Assembly (NCBI GenBank): GCA_044356215.1
Contig: JBIKWQ010000028.1
Coordinates: 1-41,215, forward strand
Reading direction: 5' to 3'
Origin: Bdellovibrionota bacterium
GTDB lineage: Bacteria > Bdellovibrionota_C > UBA2361 > OMII01
DNA: 41,215 nt
Shown here piece after piece: positions 6,327 to 27,467 of this stretch (positions are counted from its first letter, which is position 1; each line of letters opens with the position of its first letter). Under the pieces are notes generated by a model. The model was not told where the DNA came from and searched no databases. It saw only the letters and a list, made by a program, of their open reading frames with translations. The translations under genes and the position numbers were made by a program.

Positions 6327-8849
6327 CTATCGCAGACTGGCTCCCCGTCTCATACTAACTAAAACAGTTTTCTTCACTTCTACCGAGCCACCAACTGGAT
6401 CCTTAACTGTTACCGACAACTTTAAGCGCCTGTCTCTAACAAATGAACGTCTAACCGAACTGGTTCGGTACCTCTTGCCATCTGAAAACTTCCAAAGATA
6501 AGTCAGCTTCTCTCCCTCAGGGTCGCGCGACGAACTGGCGTCGATAGTCACATATCGACGGCCTTTAGAGCGTTTGCTGATTACCGGCGCGAACTCAACC
6601 CTGGGCGGAGAATTCCGATAAACAGCCGTTAAAGTCTCACTTGATGACTTGGTTAAAAAAGTCCTAACAGGATTAAGATACCCATCACTCCAGCCAACGA
6701 ATGACCTCCCCGCATAGATACCGGGCGCTCGAATCGATTGCTCCGAGCCCACAATAGGCCGCGCGATGTACGGGGCGACAACATCCTGTTCCTCGTCTAG
6801 GTAGCTAATCGTCGCTCCGGACGGCTCACTCGAGAAGATATATGGGGAAACTCTTGGGGGCAACTTAACGCATTTCTGATCCGCCAGTCCATCGCCGATA
6901 CTAGCGACGAGGCACAGTTCATAAGCCGTGTTATCAGAGTGCTCAGTCGGTATAAATCTTCCCGCAGCCCCATCAATTTCAGACACAAGATGTGTGTGCT
7001 GATTGTGGATCTGAAGGATGCTCCAGGAGAGCGATAACCTCTCTGGGAATTCGGTAATTGCCTCCCCAGAAAACTGGATCTCCTTTCCAATCTCGAATAG
7101 GTTTCCAACTTGCGGGGTGATAATTCGCGCAATGGGAGCATTCATACCTGCACGAACTGTAAACGTATCGGATGAACTAGCGAAGGGTGCACTTGTTTCT
7201 GTTACTGTTACCTTCACTGTATATGTTCCGACGCGTGTGTAGACGTGATTTACATCGGCATCAGTAGCTGTGTTGCCATCACCAAAGTCCCAAAGAAAAG
7301 TGAGAGACTGACCATCCGGATCGTAACTTGCTGAAGCTCTGGCGTTAACAACAAGTGGCACATCTCCCGATGTTGGTGACACGGATGCCTTTACTACTGG
7401 ACTTGAATTACCCGAGCCAACAGCTTTGAATCTCCTAACCTGACTGGTACGCGTCTTTAGGTCGAGATAAACCGCATAGATGTTCTTATCTGGACCAGAG
7501 AACAGCTCAACCGCCCCAAGATTACTCCCCACCTCAGTGGCAAAGTTATGCGCAGTGGGGCGACCATTTGAATCAAATGTAAGATACCGGATAAACTTCT
7601 GCGCGTAATCGGCGAAAAAAAGCGCGCCTCTATACTTTTCCGCGTAAACTGTACCTTCATAGAAAGCAAGACCGGTTATCGATGCCCCTAGATCTTTACC
7701 AGTTTCATCGTATGGGTGCCGATAGTTAAAAAGCGGCTTCCGCACGATCTCTTGCCCTTTTGCATACATATCGTTACAGAAATCGATCGTTCGCGGGTGC
7801 GACCTATATCCTACTTGTCGGACACTGGCCGTTGCCTCTCCTTCCTGTTGAGCTCGATCTGTAAAGCCGCCTTCGTAACAGGGCCAACCGAAGTTTAAGC
7901 CCTTGCCGTTGTTGATCTCCTCGTAATAAGAGGTGCCAACATCACCAAAGAACGCGTCTCCCGATTTAGGGTGCAAGGTAATTCGAAACGGATTTCGAAA
8001 GCCGTAAGCCCAAGTTCTTGAGCGATTCGAACTAGGACTGTTGGGATCAAACCATGGATTATCGGCGAGCCCTTCTCCTGTATCTGGATTAATTCGGAGA
8101 ACACGCCCAGATAGTGAATCTAGATTCTGCGTACGAAGCCCCACTCGATTCGGCCCAGAGTAATCAGCGCCATCACCCAATGAAGCGAAGAGAATCCTAT
8201 TTGGCCCGAAGATCAAAGTACCGGCTGTATGAGAAGTCGAATCACAGGCTATACAGTCCTCTATCGGCGTTCCATCCATATTTAGTCCAGTCATGCACGA
8301 CGCGCGCTCCGGGATGTTAAGATCTCCAGGTGGCACTGGCGGAGCCATGTTAGCGAGAGTGCTATTCTTGCCGACAATTACCTCAAGTGAATCAGGCAGA
8401 GCCACAGTGTAGTCCTTGCTCGCGTCGGCCGTTAAACGAGCAATCTGGATTACTCTAGGTTCGGCGGAATCAGCAACAGCTCCAGGGGGATCAAAGACGT
8501 AGGAGATATAAATAAAAGGCTTAGCAGGAAAGCTAGGATCGACCGCAATTCCAAGCAAACCCCGGTCGGTTTGCTTATTCGTGATACTCTGAAGATCAAT
8601 AAAGGGCGTCGTCAGTAATTTACCCTTATCGACAACTCGAATAATTCCAACCTTAAGCGCGAGATAGGCGCGATCAGGCGTGGCGAATGCCATAGCTGTA
8701 GATATCGGGAGATCTCGCAGTACAACTTCCTCAACAAAATTCTCACCTGGCGCGAACTCCGATTGAGATGCCGCCTCATTTATTGGGAATATTCCCGAAA
8801 CAAAAACAGATATAAACAACCAGAAGAAAAAAGTAGATGTTCGCGCCAT
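6327..8849 (-). CDS. Secreted PQQ-dependent sugar dehydrogenase (GSDH) family protein with PKD domains
   Basis: Signal peptide; RGLLGIAVDP, GFRNPFR, GDVG, NFGWPCYEG; PKD motifs WDFGDG and WKFSDG. Confidence 0.85.
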   Translation of the reverse strand: MARTSTFFFWLFISVFVSGIFPINEAASQSEFAPGENFVEEVVLRDLPISTAMAFATPDRAYLALKVGIIRVVDKGKLLTTPFIDLQSITNKQTDRGLLGIAVDPSFPAKPFIYISYVFDPPGAVADSAEPRVIQIARLTADASKDYTVALPDSLEVIVGKNSTLANMAPPVPPGDLNIPERASCMTGLNMDGTPIEDCIACDSTSHTAGTLIFGPNRILFASLGDGADYSGPNRVGLRTQNLDSLSGRVLRINPDTGEGLADNPWFDPNSPSSNRSRTWAYGFRNPFRITLHPKSGDAFFGDVGTSYYEEINNGKGLNFGWPCYEGGFTDRAQQEGEATASVRQVGYRSHPRTIDFCNDMYAKGQEIVRKPLFNYRHPYDETGKDLGASITGLAFYEGTVYAEKYRGALFFADYAQKFIRYLTFDSNGRPTAHNFATEVGSNLGAVELFSGPDKNIYAVYLDLKTRTSQVRRFKAVGSGNSSPVVKASVSPTSGDVPLVVNARASASYDPDGQSLTFLWDFGDGNTATDADVNHVYTRVGTYTVKVTVTETSAPFASSSDTFTVRAGMNAPIARIITPQVGNLFEIGKEIQFSGEAITEFPERLSLSWSILQIHNQHTHLVSEIDGAAGRFIPTEHSDNTAYELCLVASIGDGLADQKCVKLPPRVSPYIFSSEPSGATISYLDEEQDVVAPYIARPIVGSEQSIRAPGIYAGRSFVGWSDGYLNPVRTFLTKSSSETLTAVYRNSPPRVEFAPVISKRSKGRRYVTIDASSSRDPEGEKLTYLWKFSDGKRYRTSSVRRSFVRDRRLKLSVTVKDPVGGSVEVKKTVLVSMRRGASLR

Positions 8850-9337: not shown

Positions 9338-9700
9338 CTATCCCCCAGCCCTCTTAGCGCGGAGCCCTCGTCTTGTTAGTTCTTTAATTACAGTCTCGCA
9401 ATGATCTCCTTGCAGCTCGAGGACTCCATCTTTCTCAGCTCCCCCTCCTCCAGCCAGACGTTTGAGGTCTGAGAGGAGCTGCTTTAACTGCGGAGTGTTC
9501 ATGGCGACACCCGAGATAGTAGTGACCGTCTTGCCTGCCCTGCCCTTGTTCTCACGACGGACCTTGATATCTCCGTCACCCTTTATTAGTTGTTTCCTGA
9601 GAGCACCGCACTTACAGCTAGAAATTGGCTCAGAGCACCCGCTGCAGATTGCGCCCTTGTCAGTGGAATAAACTTCTCTATACTCTTCACGCTTTGTCAT
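9338..9700 (-). CDS. yciH: SUI1-family protein YciH
   Basis: VYSTD, C-x2-C, KGRAGKTVTTISG, LELQGDH, AGG C-terminus. Confidence 0.92.
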   Translation of the reverse strand: MTKREEYREVYSTDKGAICSGCSEPISSCKCGALRKQLIKGDGDIKVRRENKGRAGKTVTTISGVAMNTPQLKQLLSDLKRLAGGGGAEKDGVLELQGDHCETVIKELTRRGLRAKRAGG

Positions 9701-10335
9701 AGATAGACCCCCTTGAGATTTACCCCCAAAAGCTGCGACTTAAAGAGCCTATCGTCAACCTTCCGTAGCGTCCTATGGTGACTGGTGGTGAGGAGATTAA
9801 AGTGCCTTCTTTTTCCGAGCATCTCAACTATCTTATCGCCTACCGAGTCGTCGCACTCCCAATCGAGCCGGGCAGGATCAGGCAGCTTAAACGGGGAAGA
9901 AAATGCTCTGAGCGACTTATCTCCCCTCATGCTAAAATAGAGTTCAAAGTAAGAGAGCACTAATTCCCTCGGGCTCCTAAATATCGGCTCCCTAAAGCGT
10001 AAACCCGGAAAATTTGATTTGGCGACAGCACCCCAGTACCCACGCCATTTATAAGCGCAGATCATGTGGTCATCGTCGTCTTCTGCGCAAAGATCAATAA
10101 GAAACGGCTCGCACTTTCCCCGCTTCAATGCCGCCGCGGCTAGCAACGAACCATCAAAGCAGTGGGCTCTGCCGTCTCTAAGGGCCGCTTTCGCTGAGAG
10201 ATGGCCATCTTCGCACCTGTAAGGAAGTGAGTCTACTAAATCCTGGGCACGATCGGGTGTTGAAGACTTAGAGAGAATAGCCAGCTCCTGTTTGCTCCAC
10301 GCAGCATTGATTTTCTGTGTCTTCATACAGTACAT
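9697..10335 (-). CDS. Conserved hypothetical protein, possible Cys-His papain/transglutaminase-like enzyme
   Basis: AHCFDGSLLAAA, DDDH, WGAVAKSN, LRFREP..RELVLSYF; 4-nt overlap with yciH. Confidence 0.7.
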   Translation of the reverse strand: MYCMKTQKINAAWSKQELAILSKSSTPDRAQDLVDSLPYRCEDGHLSAKAALRDGRAHCFDGSLLAAAALKRGKCEPFLIDLCAEDDDDHMICAYKWRGYWGAVAKSNFPGLRFREPIFRSPRELVLSYFELYFSMRGDKSLRAFSSPFKLPDPARLDWECDDSVGDKIVEMLGKRRHFNLLTTSHHRTLRKVDDRLFKSQLLGVNLKGVYL

Positions 10336-10412: not shown

Positions 10413-10679
10413 TTACGCCCCACGAATGGCCCCGATCTCTCGCAAGACCGCCGCGGCCGCTTCAAAGAGTTCGACCGGAATCTCGGTGTCTAGTTCAACG
10501 GCCTCGAGAGCGGAACATAGACCTTCCCTCTCTACGATCGGAATACCGTGCTTCCGGGCGCAGCCGACGATAAAATCCGCCACTTTGTATTCTCCGCGCG
10601 CTGCTAATACGGGAGGCTGCTCATCACCGCCAGGAAGCTCTAACGCGAATGCTTGATAGTACTTATTGCTCATCGACAT
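10413..10679 (-). CDS. Stand-alone FlhB/SctU C-terminal (CC) subdomain protein
   Basis: AFAL...PPVLAARG...A..I...ARKHGIPIVE...L...L....EIP.ELFEAAAAVL is the FlhB-CC pattern. Confidence 0.88.
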   Translation of the reverse strand: MSMSNKYYQAFALELPGGDEQPPVLAARGEYKVADFIVGCARKHGIPIVEREGLCSALEAVELDTEIPVELFEAAAAVLREIGAIRGA

Positions 10680-10732
10680 TTCCCCCTTTTATTACATAGG
10701 GAAAGCCGGCAAAACCCCTCCCTAGGGAGTGA

Positions 10733-10761
10733 TCGGTCGATAATCTAAAAAGTTGCGCAAC
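10733..10761 (-). promoter_or_regulatory. Candidate alternative-sigma promoter GTTGCGCAAC-N15-CCGA
   Basis: A near-identical motif lies upstream of the sctI-like gene (17593-17622). Confidence 0.45.
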
Positions 10762-13700
10762 TACCCACGCTCGCTAGATCGGTCGCGAATCTTGTTGATA
10801 ACTTTCTCTAGACACCAAACAGTTATCGGCTTCTCTATGTGATAGATGCCTGTATGGTCGGGGGTTTCTTGCCCGTCTCTAACGGGCTCCCCTTCAGCTG
10901 CCCGAGCGCTCTTGTAGCCTTGAGAACATAAACATATTACCGAAGCCTTGGGGCAGGCAGAAGCGACCTCCTTACAGGTCAAACTACCTTGCGCTCCAAG
11001 CCCCTCTTTATCTAAGAGAATAATGTTCCACGCGTCCTGCTCACGCTCAATCAGTTCACGAGCTTGCCGCAAATCAAAAACCCCGCGCGCGACACATCCG
11101 AGAGATTCGAGAGCACTGCTGACGAAAGGTTGTACCCCTGACTCAATACCAAGGAGTAGGACCCCTACTGGCTTACTCTGACGAGTCGACTCAGCGGAGT
11201 TTTTATTCTGTCGCTCATTGCAAACTATCGGCAGGTACACACTGAAAATAGACCCCTCTCCCTCGCGGCTGTGAACGGTAATCGCTCCATCATGCTCACG
11301 TATGATCGAATAGGCGGCCGCCAATCCGAGTCCGGTTCCTGACAGGCCGACCCCCGTGTCGCGGTCAATATTTTTGGTTGTAAAAAAAGGCTCGAAGCAA
11401 CGACTAGCCGCCTCCTCGTTCATCCCGACACCGTTATCTCTCAAATCGATTCGCACATACGACCCCGGTGAGATATCAGGCCCTAAATCCCCACTTCTTA
11501 TGATAACTGAATGAGTCGATATCGAGACCTCGCCACCTTCGGTGTCGCCGATAGCGTCTTTAGCGTTAGCCAGCATATTGGTGATCACCTGTTGCAGCTG
11601 ATTAGAATCCGCTAACAAAGCGATCCCCTCTGGTAACTGGTCGTCTACAATCAGATTGATATCGCGGCCTAGAAGAGATCCATACAGCTCGCGCGAATCG
11701 CGCAAGAATGACGAGAGATCAATCTTAATCCTTTTTCGTGCCCCCTTCGCCGCGAAGTTAAGAAGTTGCGATACAAGAGAAGCGCCCCGCATCGCCGCGT
11801 CACTAATCACTTTAGATGCTTCAGCGACTCCCTGATTACCCTTCGCTTGAAGCTGAATCAGCGACACCTGACCAACTATAGTCTGCAGTAGATTATTAAA
11901 GTTATGCGCCACTCCAGAGGCAAGCAGCCCCGCTGTTCTCATCTTTACCGCATTCGCCATCTTGGTTTCAAACCGACCAGCTATCATAGCGGTCGCCATC
12001 TCACTTGCCATACTCACCAGAAGCTGTAGTCTGTCCGAAGTTGAAAAAGTCCTCTTCGAAATAGGCTCCAGAACGAGAACACCCATTACCTGACCGATCG
12101 CGACAAGCGGCACTAGTATCAAAGAGGACGGATCTGGAAAGAGAGATATGAGGTCCTCTTTTACTTCACTCGATGGATCGTCAACTATAACTGGCCTCTG
12201 GTCTGTCAGCAGCTCCTCTAGAATGCTTTGTGAATCATCGATCTCAATCTGCGAATCGACGACCTCCGGAGTAACATTAGGACCGAAGCCGGCTCGGCCA
12301 ACTATAAAGGTCCCCTGTTCATTAGTCATTCCGATCCAGCCACGTTTCAGCGCAAACTCCTCCTTAAGTACTGGAAGAATCTGTTCCCCGAAATCAACAG
12401 CCGCTCTGTACTTAGCTAACTCCCGACTCACTTTAAACAGAGATCCTAGCGAGACGCTCTGCCTTTTCTGAACCTCAAAGTTCTCAGCTTGACGGATAGC
12501 TAGTGTGATCTGCGACGCCGCCGCGCTGGCGAGGTCGTAATCTTCCTCAAGAAAAGGCTCGCTACCCCTCTTAAAAAGCACAAACGCCCCGTAAACAGTA
12601 GATTCAAAAAGCATCGGCGCCACAATCGTCGCTCTTAATCCCTCACTTTTAGCCAGCGATCTAATCGCTCGCTGGTCACTCTGGAGGTCATCGATCAATA
12701 GACCACTCCTGTCCCTGATCGCCTCCCTGAGCAGGCTCGGCCCTTCAAGGACCTCATGAACATTGACCAGATAGTCCTCTGAAAGCCCTATCGCCGCGGA
12801 AACCTCTAAGGCAGCCGACTCGCGATCTGTCAGCACCGCGTACCCACACTCAGCCCCAGTGGCTCGCAAAACAGATTTTAAACCTGTGAGAGTCACCGCG
12901 GCTGGCTCATGCGGCTCCTCTAGTGACTGCGCGATCTCAAAGAGCGCCTCAAGACGCGCGTTCTGCTTTACGAGAGCATCCTGGGCCGATCGGCGATCAG
13001 TAACATCAACACCAAATCCCTCCCATCCAAGAAGTTTTCCCGAATTATCCCAATGCGGAACAGCGCGCAGGTGAATCCACCTGAGTTCGCCGGTCTTTTG
13101 ATGTGTTACTCTAACTTCCTCTTGTAGCTCGGTACGTTGTTCTCTAAGTCTAACGATCCGCTTTAAAAGATTAGGGGCGTCCCTTGGGTCAACGATCTTG
13201 GCCCAGACACTCGGATCTCCCTTTAACTTCTCAGCGGGATATCCGATTAGCTGCTCTGAATTTCCAAAAACATCCCTTATACTAAAATCCCTGTCAGTGG
13301 TGAGGATGACTATATTCCCATGCGTTGCTAAACGCTGGTAGCGCTCAACGCTTCTGCGACTCGCGTTTGTATCGGCTTTAAAAGGCTCCTCTTCGGTCGA
13401 CTTAGGGGATGCCAACCGAATCTGCTCAAACGCAGAGACCTCAGCCGGTAGCCACCTGTGAAAAGCCCTCTTAAAAAAGCACGCGACATAACCAACTACC
13501 CTGCCGTTCGCGCTCAACTTAAAGAGCCCGAACGACTTAGTTCCGCTGTGTGTCAACGCGTTTGCGAGAGCGGTAGGAATCCGTGCTCTGCTAACATCGT
13601 TGGCTGTAATTGTAGGTGGCAAGGCATTATCATTAAAAAGAACTTTGCCATCACTAAAAGAGAAGAGTCGATTGCCATTTGAATTAGCTACCACGCCACC

Positions 13701-13889
13701 CGACAGCACAAATTGGGCATAGTCCTGCGGTGATCCAGGCACCGAGACCAGCACATCCACCTCATCGCACTTAAGAGATTGCGCGACCGCTTGCGCGATC
13801 CCGGTAGCCGGGGTGCTCGTGCCGCTCCAGAGACTACTGTCAAAGTAGCCTTGCGTGGTCGTATTGTCGTCTCGCGCTTCGCTGGCCAT
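10761..13889 (-). CDS. Soluble hybrid sensor histidine kinase (GAF-like, PAS, GAF, GAF, HisKA, HATPase, atypical receiver)
   Basis: H-box VAHNFNNLL, NMLANAKDA, DNGVGM, FEPFFTTK, GTGLGL; PAS end DVTDRR; receiver keeps LLD and EKP but lacks the N-terminal acidic pair. Confidence 0.93.
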   Translation of the reverse strand: MASEARDDNTTTQGYFDSSLWSGTSTPATGIAQAVAQSLKCDEVDVLVSVPGSPQDYAQFVLSGGVVANSNGNRLFSFSDGKVLFNDNALPPTITANDVSRARIPTALANALTHSGTKSFGLFKLSANGRVVGYVACFFKRAFHRWLPAEVSAFEQIRLASPKSTEEEPFKADTNASRRSVERYQRLATHGNIVILTTDRDFSIRDVFGNSEQLIGYPAEKLKGDPSVWAKIVDPRDAPNLLKRIVRLREQRTELQEEVRVTHQKTGELRWIHLRAVPHWDNSGKLLGWEGFGVDVTDRRSAQDALVKQNARLEALFEIAQSLEEPHEPAAVTLTGLKSVLRATGAECGYAVLTDRESAALEVSAAIGLSEDYLVNVHEVLEGPSLLREAIRDRSGLLIDDLQSDQRAIRSLAKSEGLRATIVAPMLFESTVYGAFVLFKRGSEPFLEEDYDLASAAASQITLAIRQAENFEVQKRQSVSLGSLFKVSRELAKYRAAVDFGEQILPVLKEEFALKRGWIGMTNEQGTFIVGRAGFGPNVTPEVVDSQIEIDDSQSILEELLTDQRPVIVDDPSSEVKEDLISLFPDPSSLILVPLVAIGQVMGVLVLEPISKRTFSTSDRLQLLVSMASEMATAMIAGRFETKMANAVKMRTAGLLASGVAHNFNNLLQTIVGQVSLIQLQAKGNQGVAEASKVISDAAMRGASLVSQLLNFAAKGARKRIKIDLSSFLRDSRELYGSLLGRDINLIVDDQLPEGIALLADSNQLQQVITNMLANAKDAIGDTEGGEVSISTHSVIIRSGDLGPDISPGSYVRIDLRDNGVGMNEEAASRCFEPFFTTKNIDRDTGVGLSGTGLGLAAAYSIIREHDGAITVHSREGEGSIFSVYLPIVCNERQNKNSAESTRQSKPVGVLLLGIESGVQPFVSSALESLGCVARGVFDLRQARELIEREQDAWNIILLDKEGLGAQGSLTCKEVASACPKASVICLCSQGYKSARAAEGEPVRDGQETPDHTGIYHIEKPITVWCLEKVINKIRDRSSERG

Positions 13890-13920
13890 CTATACAGAAG
13901 CTATCGCTAGTTTATAAAAT

Positions 13921-14703
13921 TTATTCGACTTGGGTCTTCGATTTTCTGACAACCACAACTTTGGAGCGCTTAATCCTCTTCTCAATCTCGGACATGAGCA
14001 ACATCTTATGCTCATGTTTGCGAGAAGCCTTAGCGTGGGGATCGCCCTCTTCATCCTTGTGTTCATCCTTTAACTCTTGAAGGCTCATTCGCAGTCCTTT
14101 ATAGAATCGCCACCGTGCGAGTGAGTACCCCACGACAGCGAATAACATTAAGACCACTCCCCCACGCGTTAGCGCTGAACGGACCAGCATATGGAAACCG
14201 ACCTCCGCCTCGCTTGTCAGTCCGATGTAAGATGACGGAGTCAAGCTCGCGATCATCATCAAAATCGGAAACAATACCGCGGCTAAGAAAGCGCATCTCA
14301 CCAGTCCGAGCGAAGCATCAAGAAGCCCTTGACCTACTTTCTTGACAAAAGTGCTGGGTAGATACGCGTCAATTCCCTTTACAAGTTGAGCTGGAAGGAG
14401 AAGTCCCCGAGACTGAAACAAACCTACCACGCAACCACTCACCGCGATCGCGCCAATCATCGGCACTAACACCCTCAATCCAAGCCAACTAGCTTCCACC
14501 AGAGCTACCTGTGGGTTCCAAACCTTGTAATTACACCATTGTACCAAGGTTCCATTTCTGACCCAAGCAAACGCCGGGAATAATACGAGAATTAAGCTCC
14601 ACCACGACACGGCGAGGCTAACCATTCGACTTTTGGGTGTTTTTCCCTCACGTCTGGCTTTGTTAAGGCGCTTAATCGATGGTGGGAACTCCTTTTGCCC
14701 CAT
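13921..14703 (-). CDS. sctU: SctU/FlhB membrane + CN part, lacking NPTH and the CC domain
   Basis: KEFPPS.KRL.KARREG, 4 TM segments, LRMSLQELKDEHKDEEGDP; ends SKVVVVRKSKTQVE where NPTH is expected. Confidence 0.85.
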   Translation of the reverse strand: MGQKEFPPSIKRLNKARREGKTPKSRMVSLAVSWWSLILVLFPAFAWVRNGTLVQWCNYKVWNPQVALVEASWLGLRVLVPMIGAIAVSGCVVGLFQSRGLLLPAQLVKGIDAYLPSTFVKKVGQGLLDASLGLVRCAFLAAVLFPILMMIASLTPSSYIGLTSEAEVGFHMLVRSALTRGGVVLMLFAVVGYSLARWRFYKGLRMSLQELKDEHKDEEGDPHAKASRKHEHKMLLMSEIEKRIKRSKVVVVRKSKTQVE

Positions 14704-14705
14704 CT

Positions 14706-15434
14706 TTAAGCACCAGAAAACGACAGCTTTGATATCTGCGCATCTATAATCTTAATCAGTTCCGCCGGGTCCGAAACTAGATTGAGAAGTAATAAGAACG
14801 TAATCACCATCTTAAAGAGCGTTGCTGTCGTTGTGAAATTCATGCCATGTGACACCTTCGCTAGTAGTGCCGATATGATATCAGTAATGAGATACGCGAC
14901 TAACCAAACCGCGCTAAAGCGGATAGCGATACCAACAACTGAGACACCGCCAGCCACAAGCGAGAATAGATCGACCCGCGAAGAAAATAGCCCGCCTGCG
15001 GGTAGTACATGATAACTCTCCGCGACCGATGCCATAGCTCGGTCAAATAATCCAAGTTGAATGGACAGAGTAAGAACAACCAAACGGCTGAAAGCCGCCA
15101 TATCTGAACTCTGCTGTTGGTTAAGCGGGTCAATGATTGAACCTATCGTCTGACCGCGAGCCGTATCTAAGAGCTCTCCAAACATCTCGGCTGATTCAGT
15201 AAGGAAACGAACTGGCGCCGCTATTATTAGCCCGGTGATAAACTCAGGGATGAGAAATAGCAATGACGAATATTCACTGACTTTGCATGAATCGCCTAAC
15301 GCTAAGGCCAATAGAACTGAGATGAACAGTCGCGGAAGTGTTTGAAGCGCGTCCCCTAGCGGAAGACCCACAAAGAGTCCGAAGATACGAGCGGATGCAG
15401 CTGAAATATTCAAAAACTCTATCATCCGCGCCAC
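14706..15434 (-). CDS. sctT: Type III export apparatus SctT/FliR
   Basis: ARIFGLF..LP, EF..GL, GELLDTARG...DP, SY..LP; position after sctR and sctS. Confidence 0.85.
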   Translation of the reverse strand: MARMIEFLNISAASARIFGLFVGLPLGDALQTLPRLFISVLLALALGDSCKVSEYSSLLFLIPEFITGLIIAAPVRFLTESAEMFGELLDTARGQTIGSIIDPLNQQQSSDMAAFSRLVVLTLSIQLGLFDRAMASVAESYHVLPAGGLFSSRVDLFSLVAGGVSVVGIAIRFSAVWLVAYLITDIISALLAKVSHGMNFTTTATLFKMVITFLLLLNLVSDPAELIKIIDAQISKLSFSGA

Positions 15435-15692
15435 CTATCTTCCATTTAGGCTACTTGTCAGCGAGAACGCTCGATAGAACACCTCCTCTAAGAGTACATA
15501 TCCCTGCTCACCGCAGACAATAAGCACCGCCGCGAAGACAGCTAGTCTGGCCAAGTGCGTTAGACTCTGCTCTTGAACCTGTGTAATGGCCTGCAGAACC
15601 GTGACTAAGCCAGCGCCCATCGCGATAGCTGTCATCGGAATTACCGACAGAAGAATCACGACAGTCAGAGCCTCTTGTATTAGATCTTCCAT
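15435..15692 (-). CDS. sctS: Type III export apparatus SctS/FliQ (start MEDLIQ)
   Basis: GLVTVLQAITQVQEQSL signature; 85 aa. Confidence 0.88.
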   Translation of the reverse strand: MEDLIQEALTVVILLSVIPMTAIAMGAGLVTVLQAITQVQEQSLTHLARLAVFAAVLIVCGEQGYVLLEEVFYRAFSLTSSLNGR

Positions 15693-15694
15693 AA

Positions 15695-16366
15695 TCAGTG
15701 GTATGCCTGGACCAGATTTTTTGTCAGCAATAACCAACCATCGGTTGAGATAAAAAGAAGTATCTTAATCGGAAGGCTGACTATGACCGGACTCATCATC
15801 GTTAGCCCCATTGCTACCAGTAAGTTTGCGATAACGAGGTCAATTACGAAAAACGGGATTAGAAGAAAGAATCCCAAGGTAAATCCTCTCTTGATCTCAG
15901 AGAGTACAAACGCGCCAACGGCGACGCTTGTTGTAACTTCACCCTTCATCTCGGCTGTTTCGGCAGAAGGCTCCTCTCTTCGTGCTAATGCGGTAAAAAC
16001 GGCCAATTCCCGCTCTCCACTGTGACTCAACAGAAATTCCCTCCAAGGTGCGATGACTGGGCTCACTGAGTTCTGCAACGAAGCGATTGAGATCGACTTA
16101 AGCTCCTCAAGCTTTACATCAGATGCGCGCGCTATCGTCCGCTCAATAACAGGAGTCATTACCGTTACAGACATTACCAGTGACAACGCCATCACGAGCG
16201 CCGCGCTAGGAGCTTGCTGCGTGCCGAAACCACTTCTTAGCAATCCTAGAACGATCGAGAACTTTAGGTAGCAGGTGCCCACTGAGATCATCAGAGGAAC
16301 CGCCGCGAAGCCTAAGCTTAACAGTAAGAGAACCTCAGGAGACAGCGATTTCATCTTGCTCTCCAT
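15695..16366 (-). CDS. sctR: Type III export apparatus SctR/FliP
   Basis: TCYLKFSIVLGLLR.G.GTQQ.P, AFVLSEI..GF, PFFVIDLVIAN.L.AMG..MMSP, DGW; no cleavable signal peptide, which is SctR-like. Confidence 0.92.
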   Translation of the reverse strand: MESKMKSLSPEVLLLLSLGFAAVPLMISVGTCYLKFSIVLGLLRSGFGTQQAPSAALVMALSLVMSVTVMTPVIERTIARASDVKLEELKSISIASLQNSVSPVIAPWREFLLSHSGERELAVFTALARREEPSAETAEMKGEVTTSVAVGAFVLSEIKRGFTLGFFLLIPFFVIDLVIANLLVAMGLTMMSPVIVSLPIKILLFISTDGWLLLTKNLVQAYH

Positions 16367-17255
16367 CTTCTAGAACTGTGCGCTTTGCGCGCCCTTTCTT
16401 TGGGCCATCTGAATCGCTCCGCGCCCACTCGATACTTCCGATCTTAAGACCTAGAGCGCTCAAGCGCGCCTTAAGCAACTCACTTTCACCCTTCGCCCCG
16501 AGAGTTGGTCTAATAAAGCCCTGCTCGATAACCACCTTAAGATCTCCTGTTCTATCTTTGGCTATAGAGAGAGAAAGTGGTGCCTGATGGCCTAGCGAGC
16601 ATTTTATTGAAAGCATTGGCAGATCGGCGACATTAGAGAAACCGACTCTCTCGATTCGCGGGGATGGATCTATTCGGGTTGGCAACTCCCCGGGCCGAGT
16701 CTCCGATTTATTCGTTGAAGTCCCAACCAGAGTACATTGCGGCGAGTTGTTTAATGAATTGCTCTCACCACCCACAATCCTAAGGCTTCTAACCGCTCGA
16801 TTAGTCGCGATAAGCTCCGACAACTCGTCGGACACATTTGATTCCGCGCGCGTTTTGGCCTGTATCTCACTCTTAGCTATCATCTTCTCAAGCAGAGTTA
16901 TTCGTTCACGAGAGCTACTCGCCCTCGCCATTTGAGAGCTAAGATCCGCTGTCGCCTCCTTGTGTGACCTTCGCGCGACAACCATCTTCTCCTGGGCCTG
17001 CTGAAGACGTTGTAGCTCAGTGCTGACTATTTTGCCGTATTCATGAGAAACCTTAGGCGAATCGGTTTGCGCACCCGAAGTTTGAAGAGCTGAACCGACT
17101 CTGCTTAATTCGGACCAAAGGTTTTTTGTGCTCTGGTCAAGGTCGGCGCGTTTTTTCGCCTCCGTCTCCGCGTACTGACGCGCTGTTTTGAGATCGGAGA
17201 GGTATAAAATTTCGGAGCGAAGAGTTTTAGCTCTAAGAACATCTGTTCGAATCAT
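16335..17255 (-). CDS. Coiled-coil (SctO/FliJ-like) protein with a C-terminal SctP/FliK-like domain (start MIRTDV)
   Basis: N-terminal ~150 aa helical coiled coil, S/P/T-rich linker, then LSLSI...GDLKVVI...LKARLSALGLKIGSIEW resembling FliK-C. Confidence 0.55.
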   Translation of the reverse strand: MIRTDVLRAKTLRSEILYLSDLKTARQYAETEAKKRADLDQSTKNLWSELSRVGSALQTSGAQTDSPKVSHEYGKIVSTELQRLQQAQEKMVVARRSHKEATADLSSQMARASSSRERITLLEKMIAKSEIQAKTRAESNVSDELSELIATNRAVRSLRIVGGESNSLNNSPQCTLVGTSTNKSETRPGELPTRIDPSPRIERVGFSNVADLPMLSIKCSLGHQAPLSLSIAKDRTGDLKVVIEQGFIRPTLGAKGESELLKARLSALGLKIGSIEWARSDSDGPKKGRAKRTVLEDGEQDEIAVS

Positions 17256-17265
17256 AGTCCCAGCC

Positions 17266-17559
17266 CTACTGGTTCTGCTGTAACTTACGAACGGATGCAA
17301 CCGCGCTCTCTGATACCTTAGAAACCAGCTCGACTCTAAGTTGATACTGCCCGATATCGGCCTGAAGTTTGAGCAAGCCTGAGAGGTGGTCCAGTGATCG
17401 CTCAGGGCGCACCCCCGGCGCGGCGCTCATCTTAGATAATTGGGATACCCTAGAGAGGATCTCTGACCAGCTTGACAACTCGGTGGCTTTCGCTGACTCG
17501 CTCGGTATTAGCCGAGCCAGATCAAGGGGCTTATTGTGAATAGATTCAGTCGCACGCAT
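17266..17559 (-). CDS. SctI-like inner rod protein
   Basis: C-terminal LLKLQ.DI..YQL.VELVSKV.E.....V.KL...Q resembles the SctI/PrgJ family; AGGAG RBS; first gene of the operon. Confidence 0.65.
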   Translation of the reverse strand: MRATESIHNKPLDLARLIPSESAKATELSSWSEILSRVSQLSKMSAAPGVRPERSLDHLSGLLKLQADIGQYQLRVELVSKVSESAVASVRKLQQNQ

Positions 17560-17748: not shown

Positions 17749-18444
17749 ATGAGCCACAGTACCGAAAGAAAGACAAGCCCTGTTAAGGACTTTAAGGTTA
17801 AACAGCTTGTTGAAGGTATAAAACGCAAGAAAAAGTGTGCTCCTACTCAAAAGCAACCTACTGTCACTCTACACATAAAAGAGATGGTTGGAGAGATCCC
17901 CCCTACTCTTCAAGGCTTACGCAACAAGGCGCTATTACTCCTTGGGTTCTCTGGGGCGCTACGGCGCAGCGAGCTAGTTGGGATCGACGTTGAGGACCTT
18001 GCACTGTGCAAAGAAGGTCTAGTGGTGACGATTAAGAAAAGTAAGACCGACCAGTATTCGTTTGGACGAAAAGTTGGTGTGTGCTTTGGAGACCATGAGG
18101 AGACCTGCCCTGTGAAGGCAGTCACTGCTTGGATGAAGGCTGGAGGGATCGGAGATGGGCCGCTTTTTCGTCCGGTTAGGTGGAGTAAGGTACAGGATAC
18201 TAGACTCTCGGATAAAGCTGTCGCCCGGATGGTGAAACGCTACGGATCAGATATTGGGTTAGAGCCTAGTAAGTTCTCTGGACATTCACTACGAGCTGGG
18301 CTTGTCACGTCTGCGATTCAAGCAGGAGTAGATCCGCTTGATGTTCAGAAGCACTCAGGACATGCTTCACTTGATATGCTTAAGCGATATATCAGAGACG
18401 CTACGGTCTTTAGGGGGAATCCGACTAGTAAGATTGGGCTCTAA
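17749..18444 (+). CDS. Cre-like tyrosine recombinase, N-terminally truncated
   Basis: LRRSEL, SKTDQ, CPV, GPLFR, GHSLRAG, GH..S..ML.RY catalytic set intact; only 231 aa with an in-frame stop 14 codons upstream of the ATG. Confidence 0.88.
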   Translation: MSHSTERKTSPVKDFKVKQLVEGIKRKKKCAPTQKQPTVTLHIKEMVGEIPPTLQGLRNKALLLLGFSGALRRSELVGIDVEDLALCKEGLVVTIKKSKTDQYSFGRKVGVCFGDHEETCPVKAVTAWMKAGGIGDGPLFRPVRWSKVQDTRLSDKAVARMVKRYGSDIGLEPSKFSGHSLRAGLVTSAIQAGVDPLDVQKHSGHASLDMLKRYIRDATVFRGNPTSKIGL

Positions 18445-18521: not shown

Positions 18522-18569
18522 ACTTCCCTCACAGTTTATTACCCGCTCTATGGACTCCCGCCTTCTTGA

Positions 18570-21500
18570 CTTCTAAGCCGCCTACACGGCGGTGAACCAT
18601 ACTTATACAGTGTGATAGTTCTTTCTACTCTTCTAAGCCGCCTACACGGCGGTGAACGCTTTCCGTGTGAAGAAAGCCGATGTGATAGGCTTCTAAGCCG
18701 CCTACACGGCGGTGAACACCACCGCTCGCCGCCTTTACTTGCCATGCTACTTCTAAGCCGCCTACACGGCGGTGAACCTATATGGATTGATCCAAGGCGG
18801 GGAGCCCGTCTTCTAAGCCGCCTACACGGCGGTGAACGGTGCCATAATTTGATACAGTTCTGTTTTGTCCTTCTAAGCCGCCTACACGGCGGTGAACCTA
18901 GATCCGTGGTACCATTTAAGCGGACTACACTTCTAAGCCGCCTACACGGCGGTGAACCTGCTAGCGAGTATTTACGCCTATCCGCTTTCTTCTAAGCCGC
19001 CTACACGGCGGTGAACGGGAAGGCGATATTTGATTCACTATTAGCTGACTTCTAAGCCGCCTACACGGCGGTGAACCGGGCGATGCGGGCTTCATATTAA
19101 CGTGTCAGCTTCTAAGCCGCCTACACGGCGGTGAACATGTGATGGGCTTTAACGCTCAGCCTCGATGCCTTCTAAGCCGCCTACACGGCGGTGAACTCAA
19201 TTTCAATGCCTAACAGATACGACGTGTTTCTTCTAAGCCGCCTACACGGCGGTGAACTTCAGTAACTTATACCAACCGACGCGCCCGATCTTCTAAGCCG
19301 CCTACACGGCGGTGAACATTGAATACAGCGCCGACGCCGTTTCTTACACCTTCTAAGCCGCCTACACGGCGGTGAACCGTAGTCTTCTATAGAGGACTCA
19401 GCTTGAATAGCTTCTAAGCCGCCTACACGGCGGTGAACGGCAATCTCTTTGCGCTATGGTGTATCGATTCCTTCTAAGCCGCCTACACGGCGGTGAACAG
19501 CGATTCCGAGCGATCCCACGGGCTCCACGGCTTCTAAGCCGCCTACACGGCGGTGAACGACACAACAAAACGGCGCGGTGAATTCCGAGACTTCTAAGCC
19601 GCCTACACGGCGGTGAACCGAACAAAAAACGAACGCCGGAATACTGGAAACTTCTAAGCCGCCTACACGGCGGTGAACGTACGATCCCCGATCCCCCCAC
19701 GTATTCCACGCTTCTAAGCCGCCTACACGGAGGTGAACGGTATAACCTACTGCGTGAACTATCCCGAGAGCTTCTAAGCCGCCTACACGGCGGTGAACAT
19801 AGCGCAAAGAGATTGCCGACCGCTGGAGTAACTTCTAAGCCGCCTACACGGCGGTGAACATTAGTATACAGAGACAATGACGCTCCTGATACTTCTAAGC
19901 CGCCTACACGGCGGTGAACACTAGCTCATTAGATGGTGATCAGAGACTAGCCTTCTAAGCCGCCTACACGGCGGTGAACTTCGACGATCCGAAAATGTTC
20001 TTTGCCAAACTCTTCTAAGCCGCCTACACGGCGGTGAACAAAATCACGCACATATTACATCCCCCTTTAAACTTCTAAGCCGCCTACACGGCGGTGAACC
20101 TATATTTGATGCGTTAGAGATTCACACCATTCTTCTAAGCCGCCTACACGGCGGTGAACCTATATTTGATGCGTTAGAGATTCACACCATTCTTCTAAGC
20201 CGCCTACACGGCGGTGAACTGAGGGAGGGAACGGCCTAGCTTCTGATAGCACTTCTAAGCCGCCTACACGGCGGTGAACCAACTTTTGGCTCTCTCGTCT
20301 CTGGAAGATTCCTTCTAAGCCGCCTACACGGCGGTGAACACTCGATTATCAGTAGTGGTACTGAGTAACTACTTCTAAGCCGCCTACACGGCGGTGAACT
20401 GATGTAGGCAAGGCATGGCGGTACCCCTCTACTTCTAAGCCGCCTACACGGCGGTGAACTCAGCGGTGGCCTCTGACTCGTTTATCCGCTTCTTCTAAGC
20501 CGCCTACACGGCGGTGAACCGTCGATTGCTACGGCTTACATGAGCGAATATCTTCTAAGCCGCCTACACGGCGGTGAACAGGTCTTTTGTGCAATGCCTT
20601 CCTATAAGTCTCTTCTAAGCCGCCTACACGGCGGTGAACTGATAGCGATAAACAAATCTACAAACGAGTAACTTCTAAGCCGCCTACACGGCGGTGAACG
20701 AGCACACCGGATCGGATCTTGACCCACGATCCTTCTAAGCCGCCTACACGGCGGTGAACATTTTGAGCAGAGTTAGACTTGCAAGGTTACACTTCTAAGC
20801 CGCCTATACGGCGGTGAACTATAGCCTCTTTCTTCGTGTAGCCCATGTACTCTTCTAAGCCGCCTACACGGCGGTGAACAGTAGTACTCCCATGGACGTC
20901 ACCGTCCTTAGCTTCTAAGCCGCCTACACGGCGGTGAACGTAACAGATCAGGGGGGAGTAGTTATCAATTCCTTCTAAGCCGCCTACACGGCGGTGAACG
21001 AATCGCTCCACGTGATCTTTGATATAATCACCTTCTAAGCCGCCTACACGGCGGTGAACATCAATACCACGAAGCTTTAAAGCGCTTGCATCTTCTAAGC
21101 CGCCTACACGGCGGTGAACATTTATAAGGCTACAGGCGATTCTAGCATGATCTTCTAAGCCGCCTACACGGCGGTGAACAACTATCTCTAAGAGCGACAT
21201 TATACTACTATCTTCTAAGCCGCCTACACGGCGGTGAACGATCCCAAAGAATCGGGATCGTGTACTCTACGCTTCTAAGCCGCCTACACGGCGGTGAACT
21301 ACATCAGAATTTATCAGCTTGGGGTGGGTACCTTCTAAGCCGCCTACACGGCGGTGAACGGATTTCGTCGTTATCCACCCGCGCGCGCTTCCTTCTAAGC
21401 CGCCTACACGGCGGTGAACGGCTGGTATAAGCTACTGAAAGAACTCAGCGCCTTCTAAGCCGCCTACACGGCGGTGAACTTGCAAGTGGTTCTGTCATTG

Positions 21501-22620
21501 GAACTATTTCACTTCTAAGCCGCCTACACGGCGGTGAACGAGTAACAAACCAAGCCGGTTTGCCATCTCTACTTCTAAGCCGCCTACACGGCGGTGAACA
21601 TCCATGGTGACGTTTATGAGCCTAGACCAGCCTTCTAAGCCGCCTACACGGCGGTGAACATGAGAGGTAATCTTGTCTGGATTATTCCAGACTTCTAAGC
21701 CGCCTACACGGCGGTGAACGCGCCATGCTACCGATACCAGACCACCCCGTACTTCTAAGCCGCCTACACGGCGGTGAACATGTAACCTTTACCGGCAAAG
21801 ATACCATCTCAACTTCTAAGCCGCCTACACGGCGGTGAACGGCGATGGGGTCTCCTCCTGGGCCACCGATGACTTCTAAGCCGCCTACACGGCGGTGAAC
21901 GGGCCACCCGTTGCGATCTCCCCGCTCCCCGTCTTCTAAGCCGCCTACACGGCGGTGAACGCATTATGCTACCGATACCAGACCACCCCGTACTTCTAAG
22001 CCGCCTACACGGCGGTGAACGCTGATCTCGATCCCCATCCCCCCCGATAGTACTTCTAAGCCGCCTACACGGCGGTGAACATGGAATGACACATTTTGAA
22101 GATTTTTTACATCTTCTAAGCCGCCTACACGGCGGTGAACATACGATCAGCAATAACGGCAGTAAGTGAGATCTTCTAAGCCGCCTACACGGCGGTGAAC
22201 TAGTGCATGTTTCGATAACCATCAGCGAGTCACTTCTAAGCCGCCTACACGGCGGTGAACTTCCAACCAGCCAAGTAATTCAACATTACTGCCTTCTAAG
22301 CCGCCTACACGGCGGTGAACGTTTGAAGCTCAGGCTATGGGCTGTAAAGATACTTCTAAGCCGCCTACACGGCGGTGAACACGTGATAACCCTAGGTGTC
22401 TGCGCACAGCCTCTTCTAAGCCGCCTACACGGCGGTGAACTCTTCAACTACGAAGGGAAGAGGTACTATTGCCTTCTAAGCCGCCTACACGGCGGTGAAC
22501 CCTTACTACACCTAACCCTCTAAAACCCTCTACTTCTAAGCCGCCTACACGGCGGTGAACTGCAGGAAGGATATCTTGACCTGAAATACGAACTTCTAAG
22601 CCGCCTACACGGCGGTGAAC
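18570..22620 (-). CRISPR. Type I-F CRISPR array, 68 repeats and 67 spacers (mostly 32 nt, range 31-33)
   Basis: 28-nt repeat GTTCACCGCCGTGTAGGCGGCTTAGAAG with CCGCC/GGCGG stem; two single-base variant repeats (positions 19731 and 20807). Confidence 0.99.
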
Positions 22621-22716
22621 CGTATTACAAAGACGAAAATCCCTGATTTTCAGAATAGTTAGATTAATCTTGTCTTAACAACCTTCAGTTTTTGATATGC
22701 ACGCAAGCGCCTGGAA
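22621..22716 (-). promoter_or_regulatory. CRISPR leader (96 bp, AT-rich, imperfect IHF-like sites)
   Basis: Lies between the cas1 stop and the first repeat; TATCAA-AAAC-TGA and AATCAG-GGAT-TTT on the minus strand. Confidence 0.7.
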
Positions 22717-23682
22717 TTACTGCAAATCATTGCAGGTGTTCGTGAGGAAGCTAAAAAGATAGTCGAGTACCTCTTGAGATTGGCACCGCTCGATGAGGGT
22801 GGCCCTGAAATCATCTTGCGAGTCCCCTCGTTTTGCACATAAAAATGCCAGCGGCATAACATAAGCATCTTTGATTAAGTCGGCAATATCGAATACCAGC
22901 GCTCCTCGCCTGGTTTTGCCGTGCAAAATGGGGAGCGAGAAGCTTATCCCCAGCCCAAATAGTGCTGTAGAGGCAAAACCGTAGGCGATGTAATTGCCAT
23001 GGTCGAGAAACCCATTTGCTACATCCGCCACACTTTCACTTAGCCCCTCCCCCTCCTTTCGGGTGAATGGAATGTCTAGGTTTCGCGCAAGCGTTGCATA
23101 CAGCGACTTAGCCCATCCAGCCTCTGCAGACAATAGCTGTGCAGACGATGTGGCCACCTCTATATCACGACGGAGCTTTGCCACTGCAGCGTCAGGTAAA
23201 ATGATGCCTCGCCTAGCAAGTTCGGCGTCGGCAGTCCATCGGGTCATTGTTACAGACAGACGTTCACTGAGCAAACGCTTGCCGAGCTGTACCCGTTTCG
23301 CATCGTCAAGCCAAGCGCGCATCCAGTTCTGCATGTACACGGTAGGCCGATATTCGCTTTGCGGTGCTAAAAAGACTGGCTCTACCGCCCCGAAAAGAGG
23401 AGAGCCTCCTGAACCGCAAAAACCAACCATCACATTAGATTCAGCCAGTCGCCTAACAGCTGCATCTGTTATCGAAGTTCCTTTTCCGAGTAGAAGAAAC
23501 GCCGTGTTTCTCTCAGGAATATTAAAAAACTTCTCAAGTTCTGTCCCGTTTTGGGTCAAGTAAACGATCCTCTCATCTTTCTGAACAACTCGCGCATGCT
23601 CAAGATAAAAAACATTAGCTCGCTTAGAAAGGATCAAAGCGCGCGGGTTGGAGCGTCTCGTCTCCCTGCTATGACCAGTCAT
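22717..23682 (-). CDS. cas1: Type I-F Cas1
   Basis: SKRAN.FYLEH.RV, NIP..NT..LLLG.GTSIT, QSEYRPT.Y, NGFLDHGNY.AYG, LHGKTRRGALVFDIADLIKDA. Confidence 0.97.
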   Translation of the reverse strand: MTGHSRETRRSNPRALILSKRANVFYLEHARVVQKDERIVYLTQNGTELEKFFNIPERNTAFLLLGKGTSITDAAVRRLAESNVMVGFCGSGGSPLFGAVEPVFLAPQSEYRPTVYMQNWMRAWLDDAKRVQLGKRLLSERLSVTMTRWTADAELARRGIILPDAAVAKLRRDIEVATSSAQLLSAEAGWAKSLYATLARNLDIPFTRKEGEGLSESVADVANGFLDHGNYIAYGFASTALFGLGISFSLPILHGKTRRGALVFDIADLIKDAYVMPLAFLCAKRGDSQDDFRATLIERCQSQEVLDYLFSFLTNTCNDLQ

Positions 23683-24233
23683 GGAACATCAGGCAGCGCA
23701 AATAGATCCTCTCCTGAACTGAGCCCATAGCCGTTGGGCCTGCACTCGGCTGAAGGCGTACCAGGTCTCCGTTCAACCACAAGTGTAAACACTTGCCGAT
23801 TACTACTACTGCGGAGCTTGAAATAATCCATTTTAGATCCTGTCACGGTATTCAAACGTCGCTGACGTAAGCGTCCATGCTCGTCACCTTGCTTCCTGTC
23901 TGTCTTTAAAGTTGGAATGCGATATCTTCTGTAAGTTGTCCACGTGCCCGCAAAATCCAGAGGTACTACTCGCGGATAATTGAGTCGCACATAATCACGA
24001 ATCCAATTAATACGGACAAGATATTCCGCTAGGCTATCTAACTGCTCTCTTGTTGAAGCGAACACCCGTAGCTTACGAGTGTCAAGGGGTACTGCCAAAG
24101 CAAACGTCTCCGGATTACGCTTAAAGAATGGGTGTAGATGTGTCATAAGCCCACCCCTCAAGGCTGGTGACGCCATGCCCGAGTCATCTCCCGAAGCTAG
24201 CACTTCTAACTCAAAAAACCACGCCGGCTTCAT
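23679..24233 (-). CDS. cas6f: Type I-F Cas6f (Csy4)
   Basis: LH in the first helix, LRVFA, YRRYR, basic helix, LRSSSN.Q.F.L, GYGLS. Confidence 0.85.
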   Translation of the reverse strand: MKPAWFFELEVLASGDDSGMASPALRGGLMTHLHPFFKRNPETFALAVPLDTRKLRVFASTREQLDSLAEYLVRINWIRDYVRLNYPRVVPLDFAGTWTTYRRYRIPTLKTDRKQGDEHGRLRQRRLNTVTGSKMDYFKLRSSSNRQVFTLVVERRPGTPSAECRPNGYGLSSGEDLFALPDVP

Positions 24234-25300: not shown

Positions 25301-25301
25301 A

Positions 25302-27388: not shown

Positions 27389-27467
27389 ATTTCTCAGTTG
27401 TTACTTATCTTGACCACCCGAAGGAGGATAGGCCAATTGACTCATAATCGAAAGCTCTAAATTCGAT

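Follow-up and report, generated by a model that had tools for sequence, protein, structure and literature searches.

A SctU protein encoded by two genes without an NPTH site, with a histidine kinase gene between its halves, in a lineage of Bdellovibrionota

Autocleavage at the NPTH motif is among the most conserved features of the T3SS (type III secretion system) proteins SctU and FlhB, and the purpose of the cut has long been debated. The window analyzed here is a stretch of 41,215 nt (contig JBIKWQ010000028.1) from the genome of a Bdellovibrionota bacterium, and it contains a sctU in the form of two genes, neither of which has the motif and which are separated by a histidine kinase gene. This raises the question of whether the two genes represent a working SctU that does without the cut, the remains of a broken gene, or two proteins that have nothing to do with each other. 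A preliminary description of the window had proposed a pre-split, two-gene SctU without NPTH. The split is present, it is conserved from genus to class and both halves are under purifying selection.

The SctU N-half (positions 13921–14703, minus strand) is a predicted 260 amino acid protein that comprises the membrane domain, the cytoplasmic linker and the strand located before the cleavage site of canonical proteins. It aligns with positions 2–256 of the 335 positions of Pfam family PF01312 (FlhB/HrpN/YscU/SpaS; Bac_export_2), with a score of 110.7 bits. The C-half (10413–10679, minus strand) is a stand-alone open reading frame (ORF) of 88 amino acids, equivalent to the CC fragment of cleaved proteins. 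It is encoded by a separate gene and matches profile positions 262–333 at 44.6 bits; the family cut-off of 24.4 bits is exceeded by both halves. The break is at the autocleavage site, because the gap between the two PF01312 matches is where NPTH is located in full-length proteins. The N-half terminates in ...RSKVVVVRKSKTQVE-stop, i.e. the strand SKVVVV followed by eight residues, and the ATG of the kinase gene is 31 nt further on (spacer at 13890–13920, minus strand, as read from the sequence). The N-terminus of the C-half is MSMSNKYYQAFAL..., and NP[TS]H is found in neither half of the window. The kinase gene encodes 1042 amino acids (10761–13889, minus strand). Since this 3.1 kb gene is positioned between the halves, one frameshift cannot account for the arrangement. 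ORFs and Pfam matches thus agree with the preliminary description, which had the kinase between the halves, the membrane part ending 31 bp before the next gene at the place expected for NPTH, a frameshift excluded, and the 88 amino acid ORF beginning at about the position after the cleavage site.

The best NCBIfam model for the N-half is TIGR01404 (SctU) at 95.3 bits, and the C-half scores 31.3 bits on the same model. Both are under the whole-protein cut-off of 358 bits, as expected of halves. Among solved structures, the C-half is best matched by 3b1s_B, a C-terminal fragment of FlhB (E = 1.2e-5). The split SctU is encoded right after sctR-sctS-sctT, and related loci display the same order.

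A Pfam search was made in 41 genomes: that of the window, 24 from further species of its genus and 16 from other families of the order. A separate N-half match is present in 37 of the 41. In 39 there is one full-length flagellar FlhB in a single frame, and in the other two this gene is broken at contig ends. Gene arrangement was analyzed in 40 loci, i.e. the window and 39 relatives picked for their N-half match (20 of the same order, 15 belonging to different orders within the class, three without a flagellum and one more from the genus). A separate C-half is found in 38 of these loci and the orthologous kinase in 39. Thus the N-half, kinase and C-half are kept together from genus to class, and both the split and its synteny are conserved in relatives. 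The motif NP[TS]H is absent from all 40 N-halves and all 38 C-halves. The dipeptide NP itself is in none of the 40 N-half tails and in only one of the 38 C-half heads, where it reads NPKY (L031). This NPKY is part of a possible N-terminal extension of the C-half (MVNPKYKLAIGL; L031, positions 7591–7884) and may be a vestige of the NPTH loop. In L148, which has no C-half, the contig ends inside the kinase. Within the order, N-halves stop just after a conserved ...R[VI][KR][RK]SKV[IV]VV strand and C-halves start a few residues before A.GL.Y.

The phylum-rank group was searched in 124 genomes, all of one class, and the N-half profile matches 107 of them. Matches of at least about 129 bits are all in stop-to-stop frames of 194–388 amino acids, mostly 255–330, and all run to the end of the profile; weaker matches in frames of 360–400 amino acids resemble flagellar FlhBs. 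Nine of the 17 genomes without a profile match show a weaker Pfam match confined to the N-half, and in three genomes that miss the N-half (G002, G003 and G017) contigs end inside the kinase gene. A 344 amino acid frame in G051 was considered as an unsplit form and rejected; it merely carries an N-terminal extension, with the profile aligning to residues 65–337. A search of 5.8 billion proteins shows 50 N-half homologues of 39%–100% identity, all 176–269 amino acids long, and the nearest full-length proteins score no more than 72 bits. An intact gene in close relatives, which would have meant recent decay, is therefore not seen among these homologues. When loci were searched with the N-half alone, only distant flagellar FlhBs of Alphaproteobacteria were found (26%–30% identity).

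A contrast set was formed from the 80 best C-domain loci in named genomes, with a genus-level alignment as the query. Fifty-nine of these are single-frame proteins of other phyla, and all 59 keep N-P-x-[H/E/R]. The sequence is NPTH in 43, NPVH in nine and NPQH in two, and NPSH, NPIH, NPTE, NPTR and NPVE occur once each. Among the 80, the N and C frames are apart in records of this lineage and in no others. The closest GuaA (86% identity) and the majority of related records carry the label of Bdellovibrionota or Bdellovibrionales metagenome-assembled genomes.

Ratios of nonsynonymous to synonymous substitution (dN/dS) were determined with three closer relatives (L048, L049 and L050); a further genome, G101, was passed over, being only 44% identical. 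The values, which are rough, are 0.15–0.24 for the N-half and 0.10–0.135 for the C-half, compared with 0.07–0.12 for SctR/SctT and 0.03–0.04 for the kinase, which is under the strongest constraint in the operon. Purifying selection acts on both halves; dN/dS was among the checks proposed in the preliminary description. To judge from these sequences, the split SctU is an ancient, lineage-wide variant of a known protein and not a recent decay product.

The genome of the window also encodes a full-length FlhB of 366 amino acids, with the sequence ...ITNPTHYAIAL..., in a fliP-fliQ-fliR-flhB-flhA operon on contig C71. This is the one full-length NPTH FlhB found in the genome and it is flagellar. 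Three genomes, G079 and G080 (94%–97% complete) and G045 (93% complete), contain the N-half, kinase and C-half in the usual order, and no full-length FlhB, flagellar rod-protein match or flagellar-type FlhA was found in them. As the three genes are kept in genomes without a flagellum, the partner of the C-half is not flagellar FlhB. The alternative that the preliminary description had held open, a C-half that partners a separate full-length FlhB, fails on these genomes and on the tree separation described below.

The best NCBIfam match of the C-half is TIGR00789 (flhB_rel) at 48.8 bits, where the cut-off is 117.35. The C-halves of four relatives score 51.6–66.3 bits and the C-domain of the flagellar FlhB itself 71.4 bits. 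A second stand-alone FlhB-C-like family, of 94–113 amino acids, is present at another locus in eight related genomes (L154–L161) and was not found in the genome of the window. Its signature is ...AVALQY...LVAEI.FLY..D..W, and it scores 73–84 bits on TIGR00789 versus 49–66 for operon-linked C-halves. It is always downstream of an ORF of 150–260 amino acids without a Pfam family. An interpretation of this second family as a fliK2-flhX-like downstream gene gained no support, as none of the eight upstream ORFs has a FliK-like Pfam match. TIGR00789 is a poor discriminator, since both stand-alone kinds and the FlhB C-domain are under its cut-off, and what it shows is non-membership.

A tree was constructed with 100 C-domains: 38 operon-linked, 8 of the second type, 14 of flagellar FlhB and 40 of 149 database representatives (all 7 of 300–499 amino acids and every fourth of those under 140 amino acids, with 109 dropped). 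A branch with an SH-like approximate likelihood ratio (SH-aLRT) support of 96 separates the 38 operon-linked C-halves and 19 short representatives from the rest, and the rest includes the 14 flagellar FlhB, the 8 second-type and the 7 long (≥300 amino acids) representatives. Together with 12 of the short representatives, the second-type family makes up a separate clade (support 97). In a search with the C-half profile, most of the best 150 of 9155 matches are 80–130 amino acids long. The 92-position profile matches one database protein, P0057 (2099 amino acids), in 18 distinct stretches, a pattern that suggests FlhB-C-like domains arrayed in tandem, and P0060 (437 amino acids) and P0094 (305 amino acids) have two such stretches each.

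Related to possible function, N-half residues 200–260 and the C-half were modelled as a complex, with a 21-row alignment for each chain. The score is 0.67 and that of the best control 0.02; the mark for this score is reached by 116 of 157 solved complexes and by 2 of 215 mismatched pairs. Agreement between runs is at least 91% of contacts, and the partner has a predicted local distance difference test value (pLDDT) of at least 72. The tightest predicted contacts are those of N-half residues 248–252 (KVVVV), which are placed between C-half residues 10–13 and 46–50. In the model, therefore, the last strand of the N-half lies inside the C-half sheet, as the preliminary description had anticipated. 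We take this strand order to be that of cleaved FlhB/SctU C-domains.

Taken with the conservation of the split and with the analogy to published work on SpaS, the model makes it likely that the two genes encode one SctU that reassembles non-covalently into the cleaved conformation. The N-half would contribute the membrane domain and linker as well as the final beta-strand ahead of the cleavage site, and the remainder of the cytoplasmic domain would come from the C-half. After translation the chains would come together without a covalent link in the fold of autocleaved SctU, with the strand V249–V252 between two strands of the C-half. The system would thus start in the "cleaved" conformation and NPTH chemistry would be unneeded. 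Physical reassembly of the halves is suggested by the model. Functional equivalence to cleaved SctU would follow by analogy: in Salmonella, machines built with SpaS that is pre-cleaved, or cleaved externally, show wild-type behavior, which implies that the two-piece state and not the cutting is what matters (accessible portions of Monjaras Feria et al. 2015, PMC4620466).

Several points weigh against this reading. The 40 loci were chosen by their N-half match, and the presence of the N-half in them is by construction. In L147 the kinase match carries two stop codons and no C-half is found within the fetched stretch; C-like copies are on other contigs of that genome. The dN/dS values are rough as dS is partly saturated (0.4–2.4). 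The tree was made on 96 columns by a quick search and many of its forks are unresolved, so that only the level of structure given above is trustworthy. The passing score of the complex may reflect likeness to solved cleaved FlhB/SctU C-domains and not binding. Finally, the protein, its expression and any "switching" by this machine are putative.

Three other explanations for the two genes bear on this. Recent decay would make the locus a broken sctU in a degenerating secretion system, and it could be argued from the dispersal of the system's genes over at least three contigs and from the integrase and CRISPR-Cas genes that adjoin the operon. The same break is however present in relatives whose N-halves are just 20%–46% identical, both frames are intact in 38 of the 40 loci, and dN/dS is well below 1 with no full-length form among the 50 close homologues, so that decay is scarcely credible. 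The 88 amino acid protein could instead be an accessory of the flagellar FlhB, related to FlhX or to the FlhB C-domain, with the 260 amino acid protein acting alone or being a relic. The complete NPTH FlhB in the genome, TIGR00789 as the best NCBIfam match of the C-half and the fact that stand-alone C-domains are common are all compatible with such a role. It is nevertheless very improbable: the TIGR00789 score is far under the cut-off and lower than that of the flagellar FlhB C-domain, the three genomes that have no flagellum keep the C-half in the same operon, it is the second stand-alone family and not the operon-linked C-halves that groups with FlhB C-domains, and the strand with which the C-domain pairs is still present in the N-half. 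The halves might also be uncoupled, with the N-half completing the export gate alone and the C-half taken over by the kinase as its partner or substrate. A weak match to the SctU membrane part without a recognizable C-domain on contig C111 hints that a membrane-only SctU can persist in this lineage, and the C-half almost always adjoins the kinase. Against this, the C-half of the family f3 stays beside the N-half where there is no kinase (the ORFs overlap by 4 nt in L042), the ...SKV[IV]VV strand kept by the N-half has no obvious role without a C-domain, and the complex prediction passes its controls. We regard uncoupled halves as improbable.

The gene between the halves encodes a predicted cytoplasmic hybrid histidine kinase. 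Its first 190 residues are without a family match and are followed by PAS, two GAF matches, HisKA and HATPase_c. HATPase_c scores 74 bits (cut-off 26.4) and HisKA 21.6 bits, which is under its cut-off of 26.9. Residues H662, N775, D818/G820/G822 and G853/G855, which comprise the histidine of the H box and residues of the N, G1 and G2 boxes, are invariant in 27 orthologues. At the C-terminus no Pfam Response_reg match was found at E ≤ 0.01; VirA-like and CckA-like/PRK13557 matches from NCBIfam reach residues 991–993, and a D as well as a KP motif survive in the consensus. The C-terminus thus appears to be a degenerate receiver-like region.

Both halves are present in 38 of the inspected loci, and in 37 of these the kinase is located between them. 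With longest ORFs as the measure, 22 of 37 loci have a kinase that overlaps the C-half and 30 of 37 have the two within 60 nt of each other; the distance from N-half to kinase is within 60 nt in 30 of 39. This tight spacing suggests one transcript and, often, translational coupling. In the window the kinase stop and the ATG of the C-half are 81 nt apart (10680–10760, minus strand); the Shine-Dalgarno-like sequence AAGGGGGA precedes the ATG, and a weak hairpin covers the kinase stop. Four loci (L044, L048, L049 and L050) have 2.0–3.4 kb inserted between kinase and C-half. Three of them are in one sub-clade of the genus, with inserts of 2.5–3.4 kb (L048, 2789–6193; L049, 7785–10539; L050, 2413–4899) that hold opposite-strand ORFs of about 328 and 281 amino acids, so that the C-half is apart from the operon. 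In family f3 (G026, G111 and G112) the halves are adjacent with no kinase between them, and the sensor part of the kinase was matched nowhere in the genome. The split is therefore not dependent on the kinase. Since other orders of the class carry the kinase between the halves, its absence from f3 is more simply explained by loss.

By its sequence the kinase looks like an active enzyme, apparently co-transcribed with the halves in most loci and often translationally coupled to them, and it is most likely a sensor controlling this secretion system. Two ways in which it might be tied to the switch were weighed. One is a regulated supply, in which the kinase controls a separate production or release of the C-half, and the substrate switch is timed not by proteolysis but by the moment at which the C-half reaches the N-half. 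The constancy of the kinase between the halves and its catalytically active look are in favor of this, as are the 81 nt gap and weak hairpin of the window; in the three loci of the one genus, where the largest inserted ORFs run on the opposite strand, the C-half probably requires a promoter of its own. The overlaps and short distances in most loci, however, suggest coupled rather than independent expression, family f3 has the split without the kinase, and SpaS autocleavage in Salmonella is unregulated, precedes assembly and is not a switching signal (PMC4620466, accessible portions). A promoter for the C-half had been put forward in the preliminary description, but a consensus scan of the minus strand shows no sigma-70-like site in the 81 nt gap, and promoter-like sites in the region overall number 6 where 6.0 ± 2.2 are expected by chance. 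A kinase-set supply of the C-half in place of proteolysis, also part of that description, is thus unsupported and unneeded, and we consider it unlikely. In the other proposal the kinase, kept between the halves throughout the history of the lineage, would be a part of the switch itself that docks on, or modifies, the cytoplasmic assembly of SctU. Instead of a needle-length ruler, a signal from inside the cell or from contact with prey would then time the engagement of the C-half with the gate and the choice of substrate. The result would be a substrate switch in two pieces, gated by a signal, on a needle-less T3SS with a possible link to predation. Taken as a whole, this proposal is doubtful.

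The two-gene SctU shares with canonical SctU/FlhB proteins (YscU, EscU, SpaS, Spa40 and FlhB) its two domains and their order, its place in the operon behind sctRST and, by prediction, the way in which strands are arranged around the cleavage site. It differs from them in being encoded by two genes, in having no NPTH and hence no autoproteolytic chemistry, and in the kinase gene that is usually found between the halves. Another natural change of gene structure in export-gate subunits is the fused FliR-FlhB (NCBIfam NF009411, a family also among the NCBIfam matches here), which is a fusion and not a fission, and in which the NPTH region is presumably unaffected.

FlhX proteins, such as H. pylori FlhX and that of the P. 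putida fliK2-flhX operon (10.1101/2021.08.29.457346, accessible text), are likewise stand-alone, about 90 amino acids long and homologous to the C-terminal fragment of FlhB/SctU. Unlike the C-half described here, which is beside a truncated SctU in a non-flagellar operon, FlhX is flagellar and is found beside a full-length FlhB. The C-half also persists without a flagellum (three of three inspected genomes) and misses the TIGR00789 cut-off. Pre-cleaved SpaS resembles the present case in that the switch protein is in two pieces before assembly. It is however a laboratory manipulation of an NPTH protein, whereas here the two-piece state appears genetically fixed and ancient. According to the accessible part of a review (PMC7911332), FlhB must be cut between N269 and P270 for late substrates to be exported.

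Myxococcus xanthus has a "needle-less" T3SS* that acts with the Tad-like Kil system (accessible portions of PMC12428579; Abby and Rocha 2012, PMC3459982). Compared by description, the two systems are alike in being non-flagellar, in belonging to a predatory-type, deltaproteobacteria-like lineage and in having scattered or atypical gene sets. In contrast to the split SctU, all seven Myxococcota-labelled records among the 80 best C-domain loci are single-frame, and two of these (L226 and L229) carry NPVH. The accessible portions of Abby and Rocha (2012) and of the 2025 review on contact-dependent predation (PMC12428579) make no mention of a split SctU. No description of a naturally split SctU, or of a kinase within sctU, was found in the literature, with subscription-only papers and supplements outside the scope of the search.

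The remainder of the operon is upstream of the N-half on the minus strand. SctR (FliP family; 15695–16366) scores 174.9 bits on PF00813 and is of the non-flagellar type: it passes the NCBIfam model NF009438 (EscR/YscR/HrcR) with 190.9 bits against a cut-off of 179, and at 160.3 bits is under the cut-off of TIGR01103 fliP (217.45). SctS (FliQ family; 15435–15737) matches PF01313 at 42.6 bits, and its real start is probably downstream of the listed TTG. SctT (FliR family; 14706–15434) matches PF01311 at 84 bits, and its best NCBIfam model is TIGR01401 (SctT) at 61.6 bits, under the cut-off. A 321 amino acid ORF without a Pfam match (16335–17300, minus strand) overlaps the start of sctR and is possibly a member of the operon; it has no tblastn match (E ≤ 1e-3) in any of 20 related loci, thus its sequence is not conserved. 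Immediately downstream, on the strand of the C-half (9338–10335), are a 212 amino acid ORF without a family and a homologue of SUI1/YciH-like translation factors, neither of which has a tblastn match near the operon in the 20 related loci.

A phage-type integrase gene (17749–18444) is located between the T3SS operon and a CRISPR array. The array (18559–22700) has about 68 copies of a 28 nt repeat at a spacing of 60 nt, and one of its spacers is duplicated (20072–20131 is identical to 20132–20191). Adjoining the array is a type I-F cas operon (22717–30650) with Cas1, Csy4, Csy3, Csy2 and Cas2-Cas3, where an ORF of 416 amino acids in the Csy1 position has no Pfam match.

The assembly is 3.24 Mb in 131 contigs and is 96% complete. 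FliP/SctR, FlhA/SctV and FliF/SctJ have three homologues each in it, and two T3SS-type ATPases pass the family cut-off. We read these as three export sets, i.e. a flagellum, a scattered non-flagellar system and a very divergent third operon with a further SctV paralogue. Two secretin genes are present as well. The flagellar set is on contigs C71, C123 and C29. The scattered non-flagellar system consists of a sigma factor, SctJ, SctQ, SctV and a tetratricopeptide repeat (TPR) protein on C70, SctL and SctN on C9, and the operon of the window.

The third operon is on C111 (L015, 49–7008) and displays FHA/SctD-like, SctJ, SctQ, SctR and weak SctS sequences, a 191 amino acid ORF, a 194 amino acid ORF weakly similar to the SctU membrane part (E = 0.046), a 94 amino acid ORF and a TPR protein. 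The 94 amino acid ORF was considered as a second C-half and rejected; it has no Pfam match and the lineage C-half profile misses it at E ≤ 1. Relatives contain matching "membrane-only" SctU-like frames of 210–240 amino acids that cover profile positions 2 to about 220. On C131 (L017, 10249–12354) a full-length FlhA/SctV paralogue of 701 amino acids occurs alone, directly beside Tad pilus genes; its neighbors are TadB/C-like, a CpaF-like ATPase, CpaB and a Ser/Thr kinase. A similarly scoring SctV paralogue is kept in three relatives without a flagellum. Its location beside Tad genes recalls the pairing of the Myxococcus Kil (Tad-like) system with T3SS* (PMC12428579, accessible portions).

A lineage without NPTH chemistry, in which the fragments are separately encoded and under purifying selection, is a natural counterpart of the pre-cleaved SpaS experiment (PMC4620466, accessible portions). 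It argues that the two-piece conformation is what matters and not the cleavage event, and the lineage would have fixed genetically what NPTH chemistry normally achieves. The halves are also a ready-made protein pair for studying the association of CN and CC. The sensor kinase found between the halves in nearly all inspected loci is without a precedent that we could find in the literature, and it points to an unstudied coupling of signalling to the secretion gate in Bdellovibrio-like, possibly predatory, bacteria.

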